Source: Peptococcaceae bacterium UBA5757
GTDB lineage: Bacteria > Bacillota > Dehalobacteriia > UBA4068
Assembly: GCA_002418965.1 (NCBI GenBank)
Contig: DIFD01000022.1
Span: 142,070 to 206,069 of the forward strand
Direction: 5' to 3'
Length of the DNA: 64,000 nt
Of the stretch, positions 44,463 to 51,178 are shown one piece after another; within the stretch, counting starts at the first letter, position 1, and each line of letters starts with the position of its first letter. The notes beneath the pieces are model-generated. The model was not told where the DNA came from and did not search any database. It worked only from the letters and a program-made list of their open reading frames with translations. A program made the translations under genes and the position numbers.

Positions 44463-45371
44463 TTATGCTTTCCGTTCCATAAAATAAACCGGGATTTGCG
44501 CCAGAATGTCCGTGCCTTGCGTAAATATTTTCAATGATTTTTGGGCTTTTTCAACGGCTACTTGTCCCATACGTTTAGCCTCCTGCAATCCAAACACAAG
44601 CGGATACGTACATTTAATATTTTTCAAATCGCTACCCGTCGGTTTACCCATCATTTCGGGATCGCCCGTTACATCCAAAATATCATCCGCAATCTGAAAG
44701 GCCAAGCCGATTTCCCGGCCGTATTGCCGTAATGCTTTGATTTCATCTTCGTTGGCGCCGGCTAATATTGCCGCACTGACGATGGAAGCAATAAACAAAG
44801 CCCCCGTTTTGTTGTCATGGATATAATCCAGGCAGCGGATATCCAGATTTTGTCCTTCCCACTCCATATCCAAGACTTGTCCTACAATCATTCCACCGAC
44901 TCCGGCAAGCCAGGCAACTTCATTGACAGCCCGAAGCAAACGCTCAGGATTGGCATAGGGCGCAACTTGAAGCATCGCGTTAAAAGCATACGTCAAAAGG
45001 GCATCCCCAGCTAGAATAGCCTGCGCTTCGCCAAATACTTTGTGGCAGGTTGGCTTTCCCCTACGGTAATCATCATCATCCATACTGGGCAGATCGTCAT
45101 GGATTAAAGAATAGGTATGGATCATCTCCAATGCGCAAGCAAACGGCAAAAAGTGGTTAATATCTATTTGGCTTTCTTGCCGATTTTGCTGGTTCAAAAG
45201 CTCCATCGTGGTTATAAATAAGGCAGGGCGTAAACGTTTCCCTCCGGCAAAAACGCTATAGCGCATGGCTTCATACAATACCTTTTCCGCTCCTTGAGCT
45301 TTTGGCAATAATTCTTCCAGACAATTGTTTACCAAAGCAGCTTTGCTCTCTAAATATGACCTTAAATCCAT
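44463..45371 (-). CDS. ispA: (2E,6E)-farnesyl/geranyl diphosphate synthase (polyprenyl synthetase)
   Basis: FARM motif LIHDDLPSMDDDDYRRGKPT and second DD-rich motif (FQIADDILD). Start taken at MDLRSYL (the ORF extends to 45464). Confidence 0.85.
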   Translation of the reverse strand: MDLRSYLESKAALVNNCLEELLPKAQGAEKVLYEAMRYSVFAGGKRLRPALFITTMELLNQQNRQESQIDINHFLPFACALEMIHTYSLIHDDLPSMDDDDYRRGKPTCHKVFGEAQAILAGDALLTYAFNAMLQVAPYANPERLLRAVNEVAWLAGVGGMIVGQVLDMEWEGQNLDIRCLDYIHDNKTGALFIASIVSAAILAGANEDEIKALRQYGREIGLAFQIADDILDVTGDPEMMGKPTGSDLKNIKCTYPLVFGLQEAKRMGQVAVEKAQKSLKIFTQGTDILAQIPVYFMERKA

Positions 45372-45411
45372 TGATGGCTGACCCCTTTCGCCTTTAGCAT
45401 CTGATTCAACA

Positions 45412-45645
45412 TTAATTGGGTTTGATCTCCTCGAACCTGTTTTGGACATCATTAAGCCAAACACGACAATTTTGGATCAAATGAACACCTTCGGCATATT
45501 TTTCCAATAAGTCTTCCAAGACCACGTCGGAAGCTTCCATCTCTTTGATCAGGTCTTCTAAGCGGTTTAGAGACTCCTCGAACCCGGGCTTTTGCTTGGA
45601 AGACTTATTGGGATTACCCTTTTTAATTCCCGTATCCTCTTTCAA
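45412..45645 (-). CDS. xseB: exodeoxyribonuclease VII small subunit
   Basis: 77 aa. FEESLNRLEDLIKEME... XseB helix hairpin. No adjacent xseA. Confidence 0.85.
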   Translation of the reverse strand: MKEDTGIKKGNPNKSSKQKPGFEESLNRLEDLIKEMEASDVVLEDLLEKYAEGVHLIQNCRVWLNDVQNRFEEIKPN

Positions 45646-45723
45646 GTATGACCTCTCCTTTTTCTCTTCTTAGCTCTTTTACTGGAAGCATTTGCATACA
45701 GTTCATCAATCATTCGACTTTTA

Positions 45724-45752
45724 TTGACAGAGAACAACAAAAATATTACAAT
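45724..45752 (+). promoter_or_regulatory. sigma-A-like promoter TTGACA-17-TACAAT for the PspC-domain gene
   Basis: TTGACA 45724-45729, TACAAT 45747-45752. Confidence 0.5.
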
Positions 45753-45798
45753 AAATCATAGTTTGGTTGTTTGATTTTTTTGTTTGGAGGAATTGATT

Positions 45799-46011
45799 AT
45801 GGCTGAAAAAAAACTCTACCGCTCCCAAAAAAATAAAGTGCTTGCCGGCATATGCGGCGGTATCGGCGAACGGTTTGGAATCGATCCTACGATTGTCCGT
45901 GTGATTTGGGTGGTTATTTCTTTCTTTCTGGGGTATTTCATCGGCGGTTTGGTTCTTTATATTATCCTCATCTTTATCATTCCCCAAGAACCTGATTATT
46001 TCGATGTCTAA
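45799..46011 (+). CDS. PspC-domain small membrane protein
   Basis: MAEKKLYRSQKNKVLAGICGGIGERFGIDPTIVRV... PspC domain + TM helix. The ORF-track start at 45784 is upstream of the likely ATG. Confidence 0.7.
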   Translation: MAEKKLYRSQKNKVLAGICGGIGERFGIDPTIVRVIWVVISFFLGYFIGGLVLYIILIFIIPQEPDYFDV

Positions 46012-46021
46012 ATCTTAAGCC

Positions 46022-46056
46022 AAGCAGCCTGCAATTCAGGCTGCTTATTTTTTTTG
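46022..46056 (+). terminator. rho-independent terminator (overlaps the lgt stop codon on the opposite strand)
   Basis: aagcagcctg-caatt-caggctgctt-atttttttt. Confidence 0.65.
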
Positions 46057-46863
46057 TTTTTTAGATTTATTTTTTTTAATATGAGAGGCTGTACTCTTTG
46101 TCACAGGAATGGCCTTGGCAACATCGACCGCAGGTTTATTTTTTAGTAAACGTAACAGAATAACTCCGGCCACGACCCCAAGACCGGAAACTACCATGGC
46201 GGCCGAAAATGGCCCGAACATAAGGCTATCCGTGCGAAAATATTCCACAAAAAACCGTCCGATCGAATAAAAAACCAAATAGCTGGCGAAAATACTGCCG
46301 ATTTTATGTTTTTTCCGGATCAAAATCATCAGAACAAAAAAAACGCCTACATCCCAAAGGCTTTCATATAAAAAAGTAGGGTGACGGTATGCACCGTCGA
46401 TATACATGGCCCAGGGAACAGTCGTCACATAACCGTAGGCTTCCTGGTTAAAAAAGTTCCCCCAGCGTCCGATAGCTTGTCCCAGTACTAAAGAGGGCAC
46501 CAAAAGATCGGCCCAAAGCAAAAACTTAAGCTTATGTTTATGGCAGTAGATGAGCGAAACGATTAATGCCGCGATAATCCCGCCATGAATCGCCATTCCA
46601 CCCGTCCAAGTCTTAAAAATCAGAACAGGATTTTGTGAATAATAAGATAAATTACATAGTACATAATATAATCTGGCACCGACCACGGCAAAAGGGAGGA
46701 TTAACAAACAAAGATTTAATAAGTCATTGACATCCAAATGCTGCCTTTTTGCCTCACGGTAGGCCAAAATAACCCCGACCGCCATGGCCAAACTCATCAA
46801 AACCCCGTACCAACGTACGGTAAAATAGCCTATTTGAAAAGCAATCGCAGAATCTGGCGTCAT
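46045..46863 (-). CDS. lgt: prolipoprotein diacylglyceryl transferase
   Basis: 272 aa. Lgt signature (GARLYYV..., G.RWGNF... region), Lys-rich C-tail. Confidence 0.9.
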   Translation of the reverse strand: MTPDSAIAFQIGYFTVRWYGVLMSLAMAVGVILAYREAKRQHLDVNDLLNLCLLILPFAVVGARLYYVLCNLSYYSQNPVLIFKTWTGGMAIHGGIIAALIVSLIYCHKHKLKFLLWADLLVPSLVLGQAIGRWGNFFNQEAYGYVTTVPWAMYIDGAYRHPTFLYESLWDVGVFFVLMILIRKKHKIGSIFASYLVFYSIGRFFVEYFRTDSLMFGPFSAAMVVSGLGVVAGVILLRLLKNKPAVDVAKAIPVTKSTASHIKKNKSKKQKK

Positions 46864-47132
46864 TCAAGTACACCCCTAATTTTATTTATGAGAATTTTTT
46901 CTTAATAATTTTACCTGTCTAACGTCGTCCGGGTTAAAGTCAAATATCCCACGTCACGTCATATACACCGCAAGCTAGTGTAAACAGCTTTGCGGATTTG
47001 TTCTGTGGCTATTATATCATCGATATGCCCCAAATCCAAACAAATTTGCTGGCGCTTCGATAGAAATTGATTTATACTATTATTTATTACCCAAGTTACA
47101 TCAAAAAATAACAAAGAACAAGGACTAAAAAA

Positions 47133-48050
47133 ATGAACACAAAACAATTTGATTTTAAACCGATTACGATCGAGGATAAAGAAGTCTTTCAGGCCCATTT
47201 TAAAAACCATATCTTCAATACCTTTACTTTTAATTTTACCAGCTTCTTTATTTGGAGAAACTGGGACCCTTTTCTTTGGACAGAGGTAAATGGCGCCATC
47301 TGTGTCAAAACCACATTCCAGGGTGATGCCATTCTTTGCCCCTTTGCCGATAATGACCAGGCTATCTTAGACGCTACGGAAACCATGATCAACTGGTACG
47401 CCGAGCGGGGGGTTCCCTTTTTGATGGTGGACGTACCGCAGACCATGTTGGAGTTCTTTGAACGCAATATGCCCCAACGCTTCCAAGTATGCTACAAACC
47501 CGAATATGCCGAATATGTCTATGACGTTTCTGACCTAGCCAATCTGGAAGGCAAAAAATATACCAAAAAACGCAACCATATCCATCAATTCATCCGTAAT
47601 AATCCCGACTATCAGTTTGTTCCCATGACCAAAGATTTGATTCCGGCCTGCCGCAGACAGCTTGAACTATGGTATTCACTAAACAAAAAATCACGCACTC
47701 TGACCATTGAAAAAGAGGCAATTGAATCTGCCTGGCAATACATGGACAGGCTTGATTATACAGGAGCCTGCCTGATGCTGGGAGACCGCGTGATCGGGTT
47801 TACCATAGGTGAGCCTTTAAACGATGAAATGGTAGGCATCCATATCGAAAAAGCCGACCCCGAAATCAACGGTGCCTACACACTACTCAATCAATTATTT
47901 GTCAAGACCTATTGGCAGGATTACAAATACATTAACCGTGCCGAAGACATGGGGTTACCAGGCTTACGTAAAGCTAAACTCAGTTATTATCCCTGCCGTA
48001 TGGAAAAACGCTACCAATTGCGTGTCGAACAGTCTGAAACAAGAGGATGA
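47133..48050 (+). CDS. DUF2156-like protein (free-standing homologue of the MprF C-terminal aminoacyl-tRNA-dependent transferase domain; GNAT-like fold)
   Basis: 305 aa. Motif ...EGKKYTKKRNHIHQF... resembling the conserved GKK..K.RN..N.F segment of LPG-synthase C-domains. Call made from memory of the family. Confidence 0.55.
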   Translation: MNTKQFDFKPITIEDKEVFQAHFKNHIFNTFTFNFTSFFIWRNWDPFLWTEVNGAICVKTTFQGDAILCPFADNDQAILDATETMINWYAERGVPFLMVDVPQTMLEFFERNMPQRFQVCYKPEYAEYVYDVSDLANLEGKKYTKKRNHIHQFIRNNPDYQFVPMTKDLIPACRRQLELWYSLNKKSRTLTIEKEAIESAWQYMDRLDYTGACLMLGDRVIGFTIGEPLNDEMVGIHIEKADPEINGAYTLLNQLFVKTYWQDYKYINRAEDMGLPGLRKAKLSYYPCRMEKRYQLRVEQSETRG

Positions 48051-48053
48051 ACT

Positions 48054-49139
48054 ATGGAATTTAAATTTGCCGCCAAAAAAGACTTCTCCGCCATTAAAAA
48101 TTTATGGGCTTGCTCTTTTGAAAGTTACGAGCCTTATTTCAGCTGGTATTTTAATTCCGTTTACCAACCGAAAAAAACTTTGTGCTGTTTTGATACCGAC
48201 TATAAGCAGAACGTTTTGTTGGCCGACTTACAATTTGCGGATTACAAATTGCAAATTAGAGATCAAATCATGCCCATTACCTTTTTTGTCGGCGTGATTA
48301 CCAATCCCCTTTACCGTGGCAAACATATCGGTGAAAAACTCATGAAAGAGGCCCTGCAGTATCTTTACGAGCACAAGATACCGCTTGCTTGCCTCTACCC
48401 GGAAGCTCCTGTCTTTTATCAAAAGCTGGGATTTGAATATTGCTATGAGGAAACGCAATCTTATTTACTCCCCCAAAGCTACAAAAATTTGTTCTCAGAT
48501 CCCAACTGGAAGATACTGGATAATCAAAATTTTGCGGATTGGGACTGGAAATCGATCGATAAAATCTACCGACAGCAGAACAAATCAGCAAATGGTTGGA
48601 TTGTAAGGCGTAAAAAAGACTGGTTCGTCTTCGTCGGCGAAGCGATTTGCGACCAGTCACAAATGATACTTTATTCCCAAGAAGAAAACCCGCAAGCTTA
48701 TCTGCTCTTACTACCTAAAAAAGAGTATTTTTTAGTCCGGGAATTTGCCGGGTTATCTCCCACACAGCAATCTCTTTTGGAAACCGGTCAAACAAAACCC
48801 TCGGTAATGGGTCGGATCATCGACGCAAAACAGGTTTTGCAACAAATCCGTTATCCTAAAGGGCTTGAGACAAAAATCAGCTATTTTCTCAAAGATGACC
48901 AGATTAAAGAAAACAACGGTCATTATCTGTTGACCGTTGCTAATCAAAAAGGCGTATTGGAATCGGCAAACTCCGCCCGGTTTCATTTGGGTATCCCCGA
49001 GTTAACTTCCATGGTCTGGGGCTATCGGTCCGCTACGGAATTAGCGCAAAACAATAGGCTGTTTGCCCCCAGCGATCAGATCGAAATACTGGATCGCATC
49101 TTCCCAAAACAAATCAACAAAACCACGCACCGGACCTAA
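48054..49139 (+). CDS. GNAT family N-acetyltransferase, Eis-like (GNAT + C-terminal SCP2-like region)
   Basis: 361 aa. Acetyl-CoA motif ...NPLYRGKHIGEKLMKEAL..., ...KLGFEY.... Start 4 nt after the upstream gene stop (operonic). Confidence 0.6.
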   Translation: MEFKFAAKKDFSAIKNLWACSFESYEPYFSWYFNSVYQPKKTLCCFDTDYKQNVLLADLQFADYKLQIRDQIMPITFFVGVITNPLYRGKHIGEKLMKEALQYLYEHKIPLACLYPEAPVFYQKLGFEYCYEETQSYLLPQSYKNLFSDPNWKILDNQNFADWDWKSIDKIYRQQNKSANGWIVRRKKDWFVFVGEAICDQSQMILYSQEENPQAYLLLLPKKEYFLVREFAGLSPTQQSLLETGQTKPSVMGRIIDAKQVLQQIRYPKGLETKISYFLKDDQIKENNGHYLLTVANQKGVLESANSARFHLGIPELTSMVWGYRSATELAQNNRLFAPSDQIEILDRIFPKQINKTTHRT

Positions 49140-49161
49140 AGAAGGCTCCGGTTTTTTATTT

Positions 49162-49947
49162 TTATACCTCCAGGCAAATCCCTACGGGGCAATGGTCTGA
49201 ACCCAAGACCTCGGGTATGATAAAAGCATCCGTGAGAGCATCTTTAAGCGATTGCGAGGCAAAAAAATAATCGATCCTCCAGCCCACATTGCGGCCTCTC
49301 GCTCTGGTTTTCATATCCCACCAACTATAATTGTGCTCTTCCTGACAAAACAGACGAAAGGTATCCAGAAAGCCCAAGTCCAAAAATTCATCGATCCATT
49401 GCCGCTCGATGGGCATAAAGCCGGAATGATTGACGTTTTCCTTCGGCCTGGCCAAATCGATCTCCCGATGCGCCGTATTGACATCGCCGCAAAGTAAGAT
49501 CGGCCTCTTGCTCTCCTTACAATAAGTGCTGATTGCCTGGCAAAATTCCAGCTTATAATTAAGCCGTTCTTCTCCCGAACCCCCGTTGGGGAAATAAGCG
49601 TTAATCAGCTGAAAAGCGTCGTAATCCAAAATCAAAACGCGGCCTTCGCGGTCATATTTATCCTCCCCGATTCCATAACGTACGGAGTTGGGCTCAATCT
49701 TGCTGTATACAGCCACACCGCTGTACCCCGGACGCTCAGCCGCAAAAAAATAACCGTGATACCCAGGAAACTCCAGCAACTCTTGTGGCAATTGATCTTC
49801 TTTGACCTTTGTTTCCTGCAGGCAGATCACATCGGGATCGATCATAGACATCGTTTCTCTAAAACCCTTTTGAGCAACGGAACGCAGGCCGTTAACATTC
49901 CAGGACAACAATTTTAGCTTTGTTTTATTGTTCATTCTGGTTCTCAC
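49162..49947 (-). CDS. xth: exodeoxyribonuclease III (Xth/ExoA)
   Basis: LLSWNVNGLR, EEP-fold catalytic residues, C-terminal ...SDHCPV... Confidence 0.9.
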   Translation of the reverse strand: MRTRMNNKTKLKLLSWNVNGLRSVAQKGFRETMSMIDPDVICLQETKVKEDQLPQELLEFPGYHGYFFAAERPGYSGVAVYSKIEPNSVRYGIGEDKYDREGRVLILDYDAFQLINAYFPNGGSGEERLNYKLEFCQAISTYCKESKRPILLCGDVNTAHREIDLARPKENVNHSGFMPIERQWIDEFLDLGFLDTFRLFCQEEHNYSWWDMKTRARGRNVGWRIDYFFASQSLKDALTDAFIIPEVLGSDHCPVGICLEV

Positions 49948-51178
49948 CGTCCTCTTCTAGATAGGCAATATCCTGCTCTAAATCTTCCTCTCCGATCAAA
50001 TGATTAGCCTGTGATTGGGAAAGCTGGCTCACCTGGCGCAATTTGCGTTCGATGGTGCGTGTCTTGCGGGAGGCATCTTCGATGGTATGGCTGGCTTCGC
50101 TGAGTTTCTTTTGGGTTTTATCCAATAATTGGCCGAAACCGGCAAATCCGGTTTTTACAGCCCCTAAAAGCTGCCAGACTTCATCGGCTCTTTTTTCGAT
50201 GGCCAACGTGCGGAACCCCATCTGCAGACTATTTAGCAGAGCCGAAATGGTCGTCGGCCCCGCAAGCATAACACGGTAGTCCTGCTGCAAGGATTCGCTC
50301 AAGCCCGGGCGCTGCAACAGTTCTGAATACAACCCTTCTAAGGGGACGAATAAAACTGCGAAATCCGTCGTGTGAGGCGGCTGCAAATACTTTTCCTGCA
50401 CATCTTTGGCAAAAGATTTGACGCGCTGCTCTAAAGCCCTTCCCGCTAATTGAGCCGCTGTGGCATCACCGTCTTGCTGAGCCTGCAATAATACCTGATA
50501 ATCTTCCAACGGGAACTTGGCGTCGATGGGCAAATAGACGATCTGGTTTTCGTTTTTGCCCGGCAGACGGATGGCATACTCCACACGGTTATTCGGTTGG
50601 GACGGTTTGGTGGCAACATTGCAATCATATTGATCAATGGTCAGCATCTGTTCTAAAATGCTGCCCAACTGGACTTCTCCCCAAATGCCGCGAGTCTTGA
50701 CGTTGGAAAAAATCTTCTTTAAATCCCCCACGCCGGAAGCAAGCGTTTGCATTTCGCCCAAGCCCTGATGCACCTTTTCCAGCCGTTCGCTGACCTGACG
50801 GAACGATTCCCCAAGCCGCTTTTCCAGATTCTGGCTGAGCTTTTCATCCACAGTCAACCGCATCTCTTCGAGTTTCTTTTCATTGTTTTGCCGGATTTGC
50901 AGCAGGTTTTGTTCGATCTCGCGTCGGATGGTTTCCATGGTGGTACGGCTTGTTTCCATGCGCTGCTCGTTGGCCTGATTTAAGGCCATAAACTGACGCA
51001 ACAACTGCTCTGCGGTACTTTGCAAAGAATTGTTCAATTCCTGTCGCATCAATGTCATCTCTTCTTTAATCCGGCGTTCATTGGCTTCGAACGCATCCTT
51101 TTTGCTCCGGCTGGCCAATAAAACAATCAAGACCACAATCATCAAAGCTAAATTGATGCCCAAAAGAGTTGTCGTCAT
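49925..51178 (-). CDS. rmuC: DNA recombination protein RmuC
   Basis: 417 aa. N-terminal TM, long coiled-coil, RmuC C-domain. Confidence 0.85.
   Translation of the reverse strand: MTTTLLGINLALMIVVLIVLLASRSKKDAFEANERRIKEEMTLMRQELNNSLQSTAEQLLRQFMALNQANEQRMETSRTTMETIRREIEQNLLQIRQNNEKKLEEMRLTVDEKLSQNLEKRLGESFRQVSERLEKVHQGLGEMQTLASGVGDLKKIFSNVKTRGIWGEVQLGSILEQMLTIDQYDCNVATKPSQPNNRVEYAIRLPGKNENQIVYLPIDAKFPLEDYQVLLQAQQDGDATAAQLAGRALEQRVKSFAKDVQEKYLQPPHTTDFAVLFVPLEGLYSELLQRPGLSESLQQDYRVMLAGPTTISALLNSLQMGFRTLAIEKRADEVWQLLGAVKTGFAGFGQLLDKTQKKLSEASHTIEDASRKTRTIERKLRQVSQLSQSQANHLIGEEDLEQDIAYLEEDGENQNEQ

Follow-up and report, generated by a model that had tools for sequence, protein, structure and literature searches.

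We analysed a 64,000-nucleotide stretch of contig DIFD01000022.1 from Peptococcaceae bacterium UBA5757 (the window), in which two adjacent plus-strand open reading frames (ORFs) encode a free-standing transferase of the DUF2156 family (ORF1) and an acetyltransferase with the Eis fold (ORF2). The DUF2156 protein and the Eis-like GNAT form one functional unit that is co-inherited and, in many Bacteroidales, fused. For the activity of this unit we tentatively favour a scheme in which a phosphatidylglycerol-type lipid is first aminoacylated and then N-acetylated. An earlier reading of the window, made from its letters alone (the sequence-only reading), had proposed such a pathway; its domain assignments held, and the order of the two steps is one that we infer.

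The DUF2156 and Eis-like genes are paired and fused across phyla

One genome per species was scanned, yielding 80 DUF2156 loci, of which 75 were assessable and 5 were not. An ORF2-type GNAT was found near the DUF2156 gene in 42 of the 75 assessable loci: adjacent downstream in 34, one gene apart in four, as an in-frame fusion in three and adjacent upstream in one. The partner-positive loci came from Clostridia, Peptococcaceae, Veillonella, Sporomusaceae, Caldicoprobacter, Bacteroides, Phocaeicola, Parabacteroides, Dysgonomonadaceae and Paludibacteraceae. The association was also seen from the acetyltransferase side. Both sampled ORF2-like representatives (2/2; 29% and 23% identity) had a DUF2156 gene directly upstream, and DUF2156 was present at 18/18 metagenome loci that had been seeded on the GNAT motif and had enough flanking DNA. 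Pairwise distances in the two proteins correlated with r 0.91 (0/2000 permutations higher), as expected for co-inherited genes. Pairing was kept across phyla while the flanks varied, and clustering of all flanking ORFs revealed no other broadly conserved neighbour.

In L030, L033 and L082 a single ORF carried both domains according to Pfam, and the best 120 database matches to one fusion all contained PF09924 together with PF13527 (120/120). The fusions have a long form of 637-711 residues and a short Alistipes form of 459-470 residues, in which the Eis-like part is reduced to its first GNAT domain. DUF2156 comes first both in gene order and in the domain order of the fusions. The sequence-only reading had suggested examining whether the neighbourhood is conserved, and had named two grounds for giving up its proposal: assignment of ORF1 to an unrelated family and failure of the two genes to co-occur in other genomes. 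Both questions were answered in its favour, with co-occurrence in 42/75 loci and fusions in many genomes.

Variants of the gene order were also observed. The L096 locus (L096:399-5528) is rearranged, with xth between the Eis-like gene and DUF2156 and with DUF2156 on the opposite strand; its divergent lgt-DUF2156 pair is intact. A LysE-type exporter gene (PF01810) lies between the DUF2156 and Eis-like genes at L011:10915-11523 and also in L012 and L013, three closely related Veillonella loci only, with the start of the exporter gene overlapping the stop codon of DUF2156.

ORF1 is a tandem-GNAT transferase of the BT_3689 subfamily

ORF1 matched PF09924 (LPG_synthase_C/DUF2156) with an expect value (E) of 7e-45 and 153.7 bits (cut-off 27.5), over model positions 11-296 of 298. 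The protein was wholly covered by this synthase-like domain, and no membrane or flippase domain was present. Its AlphaFold2 model was a single globular tandem-GNAT protein with a predicted local distance difference test (pLDDT) score of 94.3. The claim that ORF1 is a free-standing DUF2156 protein lacking flippase and transmembrane segments was thus borne out. ORF1 is 38% identical to the uncharacterised 305-residue protein BT_3689 of Bacteroides thetaiotaomicron (PDB 2HQY), a structural-genomics entry to which no function has been assigned, and shows the full-length similarity to 2HQY at equal size that defines the BT_3689-type subfamily. Its relatives are all about 295-315 residues long, and free-standing DUF2156 relatives gave 4319 matches at E 1e-10. 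NCBIfam offered no named family for ORF1, and for ORF2 gave a match below threshold only. ORF1 is a tandem-GNAT transferase that acts in the cytosol and belongs to the BT_3689 subfamily.

The sequence-only reading had pointed to the synthase signature GKK..K.RN..N.F. We located it at residues 140-153, where ORF1 reads G140-K-K-Y-T-K-K-R-N-H-I-H-Q-F153, with one deviation: H151 stands where the family usually has N. In the model, helix 141-156 is strongly basic and conserved, and lies between the two GNAT lobes. Among 39 members of the ORF1 family, Lys or Arg occupied position 146 in 100%, position 147 in 97%, position 141 in 82% and position 142 in 77%, and G140 and N148 were invariant. Every family-invariant residue is kept in ORF1. 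The median isoelectric point of the family is 5.8. Members of PF09924 combine two GNAT units in tandem with a positively charged helix set between them, and ORF1 shows both traits. In transferases of this kind, the basic inter-lobe helix is described as the common element that binds the acceptor stem of aminoacyl-tRNA (PMC6103681, PMC7334510). By its modelled fold, ORF1 is accordingly best placed in the aminoacyl-tRNA transferase branch, a predicted placement.

One of the closest known systems is MprF (PDB 4V36, 4V35, 6LV0, 5VRV, 9J8Q), whose C-terminal synthase domain is also PF09924. Since the profile of the ORF1 subfamily misses MprF, the two were compared by fold. MprF is 11-15% identical to ORF1, has an N-terminal flippase/membrane domain that ORF1 lacks, and is never paired or fused with an Eis-like GNAT, whereas ORF1 is. 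ORF1, having no flippase domain, is not an MprF. Free-standing enzymes that depend on aminoacyl-tRNA are also known from antibiotic and cell-wall pathways (VlmA, Sbb17/Sba18/Orf11 and FemX), where the acceptors are known; the ORF1-ORF2 module differs from the VlmA group in its housekeeping surroundings and its dedicated acetyltransferase partner. The mycothiol enzymes MshC and MshD offer a further comparison: MshC is a ligase driven by ATP rather than a transferase that depends on tRNA, the acceptor is a soluble sugar, and the sequences are unrelated to those of the module.

ORF2 belongs to a dedicated partner subfamily with the Eis fold

ORF2 matched PF13527 (Acetyltransf_9, E 1.4e-21) and PF13530 (SCP2_2, E 7e-14). 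Its layout comprises an N-terminal GNAT domain (residues 4-129), a shortened central GNAT domain and an SCP2-like tail (residues 259-353). The ORF2 sequence matched Eis-like proteins only among known structures. A Foldseek search with the AlphaFold2 model (pLDDT 92.8) gave template modelling (TM) scores of 0.76-0.83 over the whole length to 2OZG, 3N7Z, 2HV2, Mycobacterium abscessus Eis2 and M. tuberculosis Eis. The description of ORF2 as an Eis-type GNAT with an SCP2-like tail therefore stands. The sequence-only reading had also suggested a Pfam check of the pair: PF09924 and PF13527 were recovered, and PF17668, the central Eis GNAT domain, was not detected in the Pfam scan of ORF2; it does score in the orthologues L025, L083 and L084, and the ORF2 model still superposes on whole Eis structures with the complete fold.

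The catalytic Tyr is Y122 in ORF2 and is invariant in 43 partner proteins. The loop that binds the pyrophosphate of acetyl-coenzyme A (acetyl-CoA; R-x-x-G-x-G/A) reads R88-G-K-H91-I-G93. A word-indexed homologue search returned two ORF2 relatives, and an exhaustive search at E 1e-10 brought up 279 representatives. ORF2 is a member of a subfamily dedicated to partnering DUF2156. It shares the GNAT-GNAT-SCP2-like fold with Eis (Rv2416c) and Eis-like proteins (2OZG, 3N7Z, 2HV2, 2I00, 4MY0, 6RFY) at 14-18% identity, and differs from them in that its subfamily always accompanies DUF2156 and in the P-loop His, shortened central domain and divergent C-terminus of the window protein. The C-terminus reads INKTTHRT, where partner proteins end in YINEWW, NWxNEYT or YMSLMLN. 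A frameshift as the source of this tail was rejected, since the family motif is not encoded in any frame at the 3' end of ORF2. From sequence comparison, the window ORF2 appears to be the most derived member of its clade, and it may be weakened or specialised, with the catalytic Tyr and the overall fold kept.

Organisation of the locus

The sequence-only reading had reported two linked plus-strand genes, and their coordinates were confirmed (Table 1). The tight linkage it described also held, with a spacer of 3 nt, not 4 nt, separating the stop codon of ORF1 (48048-50) from the ATG of ORF2. The ribosome-binding site of ORF2 lies inside the end of ORF1, which suggests that the two are translationally coupled. 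With this internal site, the 3-nt spacer and a terminator-like hairpin behind ORF2, the pair resembles an operon of two genes. Its upstream boundary is the intergenic region shared with lgt, within which both promoters, that of lgt and that of ORF1, presumably lie, and its downstream boundary is formed by the convergent xth-rmuC genes. The hairpin sits between the convergent ORF2 and xth and has an RNA folding energy of -12.3 kcal/mol (z -2.67 versus shuffles); a consensus terminator scan did not pick it up. Identical proteins are recorded on contigs of 142-319 kb from a methanogenic alkane-degrading enrichment culture, and ORF1 and ORF2 are therefore real genes rather than chance ORFs.

Table 1. 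Features of the ORF1-ORF2 locus and of related loci. Positions refer to the window unless preceded by a locus handle.
Feature	Position	Strand	Remarks
lgt (prolipoprotein diacylglyceryl transferase)	46045..46863	-	PF01790 (Pfam); divergent from ORF1
lgt-ORF1 divergent intergenic region, 269 bp	46864..47132	.	read from sequence
AAGGA ribosome-binding site of ORF1	47120..47124	+	8 nt 5' of ATG; read from sequence
ORF1, 305 aa	47133..48050	+	free-standing BT_3689-type DUF2156 (PF09924) tandem-GNAT transferase
ORF1 basic helix codons, residues 140-156	47550..47600	+	between the two GNAT lobes; GKKYTKKRNHIHQFIRN
GAGGA ribosome-binding site of ORF2	48043..48047	+	6 nt 5' of ATG, within the last ORF1 codons; read from sequence
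ORF2, 361 aa	48054..49139	+	Eis-fold acetyltransferase
ORF2 residues 89-91	48318-48326	+	P-loop His site
Terminator-like hairpin, then T-run	49129..49163	+	stem 49129-49152; overlaps the ORF2 stop codon
Alistipes LtaS-like gene	L088:1975-4032; L089:2098-4008; L090 and L091:2106-4004

A promoter scan of the lgt-ORF1 intergenic region gave sites no commoner than in shuffled sequence, with promoter-like matches on the minus strand only. Alignment of 22 orthologous lgt-DUF2156 intergenic regions brought out a -10-like TATTATA block alone, without an operator. Apart from ORF1 and ORF2, the window contains no further DUF2156 or Eis-like gene. The surroundings had been described as minus-strand housekeeping genes; xth, rmuC and lgt are indeed on the minus strand, and the strands are otherwise mixed, with a DUF1015 gene, a small PspC-domain ORF and a C_GCAxxG/azoreductase pair on the plus strand. 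The PspC-domain ORF adjoins lgt (45784-46011, plus strand), and such an ORF again stands beside lgt in L005, L084, L094, L097 and L108, a clade-specific synteny. Elsewhere on the minus strand, neighbouring housekeeping operons show overlapping gene ends: there is a 53-nt overlap of xseB with the longest ORF of ispA (44463-45645), the called gene starting further in, and xth and rmuC overlap by 23 nt (49162-51178).

Neighbouring genes suggest phosphatidylglycerol as a possible substrate

The lgt gene directly upstream of ORF1 is absent from the sequence-only reading. In the Clostridia clade of the window, lgt was divergent from DUF2156 in 22/22 loci, across which ORF1 identity was 39-51%, Lgt identity was 44-63% and the outer flanks changed. 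The lgt-linked loci are the window, L003-L005, L083-L085 and L094-L112, where the gene is divergent, and L030, L033 and L086, where it is convergent. The latter are three Bacteroidales loci in which lgt lies immediately downstream of the long fusion, an arrangement unrelated to that in the Clostridia. We regard lgt as an associated neighbour whose membership of the ORF1-ORF2 system is not proven. Four Alistipes loci carry a gene for a membrane protein of 632-685 residues, and the end of that gene overlaps the beginning of the short fusion by 4-32 nt, which suggests that the two are in one operon. The best matches of this membrane protein are LtaS, LtaP and phosphoglycerol transferase I (LtaS/MdoB-like). 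Lgt uses phosphatidylglycerol to lipidate prolipoproteins, and LtaS, LtaP and phosphoglycerol transferase I are also users of phosphatidylglycerol. From these linkages, all pointing the same way, we infer phosphatidylglycerol as the shared substrate.

Other neighbours are specific to particular lineages. In Bacteroides and Phocaeicola (L029, L039, L066), lrgA/lrgB-like genes and a divergent pta-ackA lie upstream of the module, and pta-ackA is directly upstream in the fused locus L087; these genes are a lineage-specific link to the acetyl-CoA/acetyl-phosphate node. An MsbA-like ABC exporter gene follows lgt at L084:2167-3894 and L083:2247-3972, and a relative of 46% identity lies directly upstream of a partnerless DUF2156 gene at L062:579-2279. 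The exporter is a possible candidate for a lipid flippase; ABC exporters are common. Both the LysE-type neighbours (three near-identical Veillonella loci) and the MsbA-like neighbours (four loci) are too sparse to build on.

Proposed mechanism and alternatives

In the lipid reading that we tentatively favour, the ORF1-ORF2 operon would be a two-enzyme module acting in two successive steps on one substrate. ORF1 would take an aminoacyl group from charged tRNA, bound via the conserved inter-lobe basic helix, and esterify it, on the inner side of the membrane, to the head-group glycerol of phosphatidylglycerol or of a related glycerolipid, like the synthase domain of MprF. ORF2 would then N-acetylate the new amino group with acetyl-CoA, neutralising its charge and stabilising the ester. 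As step one would make the amine that a GNAT needs, this scheme would account for a dedicated N-acetyltransferase often fused behind the transferase. The conserved inter-lobe helix, the leading position of DUF2156 in operons and fusions, and the phosphatidylglycerol-using neighbours of several lineages speak in favour of this order. N-acylated aminoacyl-phosphatidylglycerol has a precedent in N-succinyl-lysyl-phosphatidylglycerol, whose modifying enzyme is not known (PMC6103681, PMC9973362), and MprF alters the polymerisation of lipoteichoic acid by LtaS (PMC9973362).

Several observations weigh against this scheme. The most direct are published ones, the only ones available on what the subfamily does, and they run counter to the tRNA-dependent step: 2HQY is reported with acetyl-CoA in its active site, and deletion of the Helicobacter pylori homologue HPB8_1270, which is tied to lysine acetylation by genetics only, partly reduced acetylation of ribonuclease J (RNase J) at K323, K397, K511 and K649 (PMC10700544). 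These two reports point to acetyl-CoA, not aminoacyl-tRNA, as the donor of ORF1. When run against PDB sequences, the subfamily profile reached 2HQY only and no MprF chain; by sequence the subfamily is a distinct and distant branch of PF09924, and its function may have diverged from that of MprF. An Rfam scan of 45600-49400 with E up to 1 gave no match to a T-box, a riboswitch or any further RNA family, so that the aminoacyl-tRNA idea is without support from a tRNA-sensing leader. Nor was a flippase, membrane anchor, dedicated tRNA synthetase paralogue or T-box leader found with the module. The partner was absent from 33/75 loci (~44%), including those of Selenomonadaceae, Helicobacter, Phycisphaerae and several Lachnospiraceae and Oscillospiraceae, and DUF2156 can therefore work alone. 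In the window itself, ORF2 has His at position 91, which is Gly in 95% of partners and in at least 90% of its closest relatives, and its central domain is ~30 residues shorter than theirs. Finally, linkage to lgt is confined to two lineages and linkage to an LtaS-like gene to one.

In the main rival reading, to us only slightly less likely than the lipid reading, both proteins would use acetyl-CoA and no tRNA: ORF1 would be a BT_3689-type tandem-GNAT acetyltransferase, and together with its Eis-type partner it would acetylate lysines of proteins or a number of amines on a single small molecule. The acetyl-CoA reported in 2HQY and the loss of RNase J acetylation in the H. pylori mutant (PMC10700544) speak for this, as does a subfamily too distant from MprF for detection by sequence. 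Structures of M. tuberculosis Eis with DUSP16/MKP-7-related and Lys-peptide substrates are in line with it, and so is the divergent pta-ackA upstream in Bacteroides, Phocaeicola and L087. However, a bound CoA ligand could stand in for the 3' adenosine of tRNA. The effect in H. pylori is both partial and indirect. The one Helicobacter locus retrieved in the genome scan, L027, from a metagenome-assembled genome of Helicobacter sp., has no Eis-like neighbour. Two acetyl-CoA-dependent enzymes would, moreover, leave unexplained the strictly conserved basic helix, the fixed order of the fusion and the linkage to lgt and LtaS-like genes.

Less probable still is an acceptor in solution: ORF1 would aminoacylate an amine or hydroxyl group of a soluble small molecule, either a metabolite or a xenobiotic, as VlmA and Sbb17/Orf11 do, and ORF2 would acetylate the product, for biosynthesis, export or detoxification. 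The proteins would suit such a role, as neither has a membrane segment and Eis enzymes acetylate aminoglycosides, and the LysE-type exporter between the genes in three Veillonella loci could serve it; yet this insertion is limited to one close strain group. The surroundings of the module are housekeeping genes, with no biosynthetic cluster, synthetase paralogue or other conserved neighbour, and its core-genome spread in gut anaerobes is unlike that of a secondary-metabolite gene.

The linkage to lgt raises a further option, drawn by analogy, which we consider improbable. The module might load a membrane glycerolipid with an acetyl or N-acetyl-aminoacyl ester, to be flipped and used beyond the cytoplasm as a donor for lipoprotein N-termini or glycerophosphate polymers, much as in the PcrB/YvoF/LhaT system. 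In Bacillus subtilis, YvoF is encoded in hprK-lgt-yvoD-yvoE-yvoF and acetylates the glycerol of a carrier lipid, on which LhaT then draws outside the cell to N-acetylate lipoproteins (PMC12345273). Both systems have a gene for a cytosolic acyltransferase linked to lgt, and glycerol esterification on a membrane lipid is what we propose for the module. The occurrence of lgt linkage in two phyla and of the LtaS-like gene in Alistipes fits such a role. So do L096, which keeps the lgt-DUF2156 pair with the GNAT gene moved off, and the MsbA-like ABC exporter near lgt (L083, L084) and near DUF2156 (L062). YvoF, however, belongs to a different protein family and its carrier is heptaprenylglycerol, so that the analogy is one of position and logic, and analogy and gene position are the sole basis of this option. 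No LhaT-like enzyme for the acceptor side was found near the module, most module loci have no lgt neighbour, and adjacency to an ABC exporter is weak evidence where such exporters are common. In a more specific form, to which we give an equally low probability, the module would be a cytosolic loader that places a tRNA-derived, N-acetylated aminoacyl group on a membrane glycerolipid such as phosphatidylglycerol; once flipped, this lipid would be the activated donor or the modified substrate for enzymes at the external side of the membrane, in Lgt-dependent lipoprotein maturation or LtaS-like glycerophosphate transfer. Such a loader could, with comparably little likelihood, be a tRNA-dependent counterpart, widespread in gut Bacteroidales, Veillonella and Clostridia, of the acetyl-heptaprenylglycerol shuttle recently described in Bacillus.

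That two unrelated enzymes are adjacent without meaning is extremely improbable: ~44% of DUF2156 loci are partnerless, but the idea is contradicted by fusions in at least 120 protein clusters, by reciprocal adjacency in every assessable case, by pairing kept across phyla while flanks vary, and by starts and stops arranged for translational coupling.

Two other candidates were rejected. A GNAT toxin-antitoxin system does not fit, as both proteins are large multi-domain enzymes and there is no small antitoxin gene. That a cytosolic GNAT N-acetylates lipoproteins directly was set aside on topology; Bacillus uses a lipid carrier (PMC12345273).

Significance

No paper that we found describes how the two genes are paired or fused, or that they are linked to lgt. 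Literature naming DUF2156, PF09924 or LPG_synthase_C held nothing on the pair, and nothing was found on BT_3688 and BT_3690. Free-standing DUF2156 proteins number in the thousands. A crystal structure has been available since 2006, and they are still without an assigned function. That about half of them are paired or fused with a dedicated Eis-type acetyltransferase provides a concrete, testable two-step hypothesis, and such proteins occur in the tractable organisms B. thetaiotaomicron, Veillonella parvula and Alistipes. If ORF1 uses acetyl-CoA, part of PF09924 would be redefined, and the automatic NCBI name 'phosphatidylglycerol lysyltransferase domain-containing protein' would be misleading. 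If lipid aminoacylation and N-acetylation is correct, the N-acetyl-aminoacyl lipid would be a new class of membrane lipid in dominant human gut anaerobes. The module could also reveal the type of enzyme that N-acylates aminoacyl-phosphatidylglycerol, the maker of N-succinyl-lysyl-phosphatidylglycerol being not known. Through its link to lgt, the module may be tied to the lipoprotein chemotype, and hence to recognition by Toll-like receptor 2.

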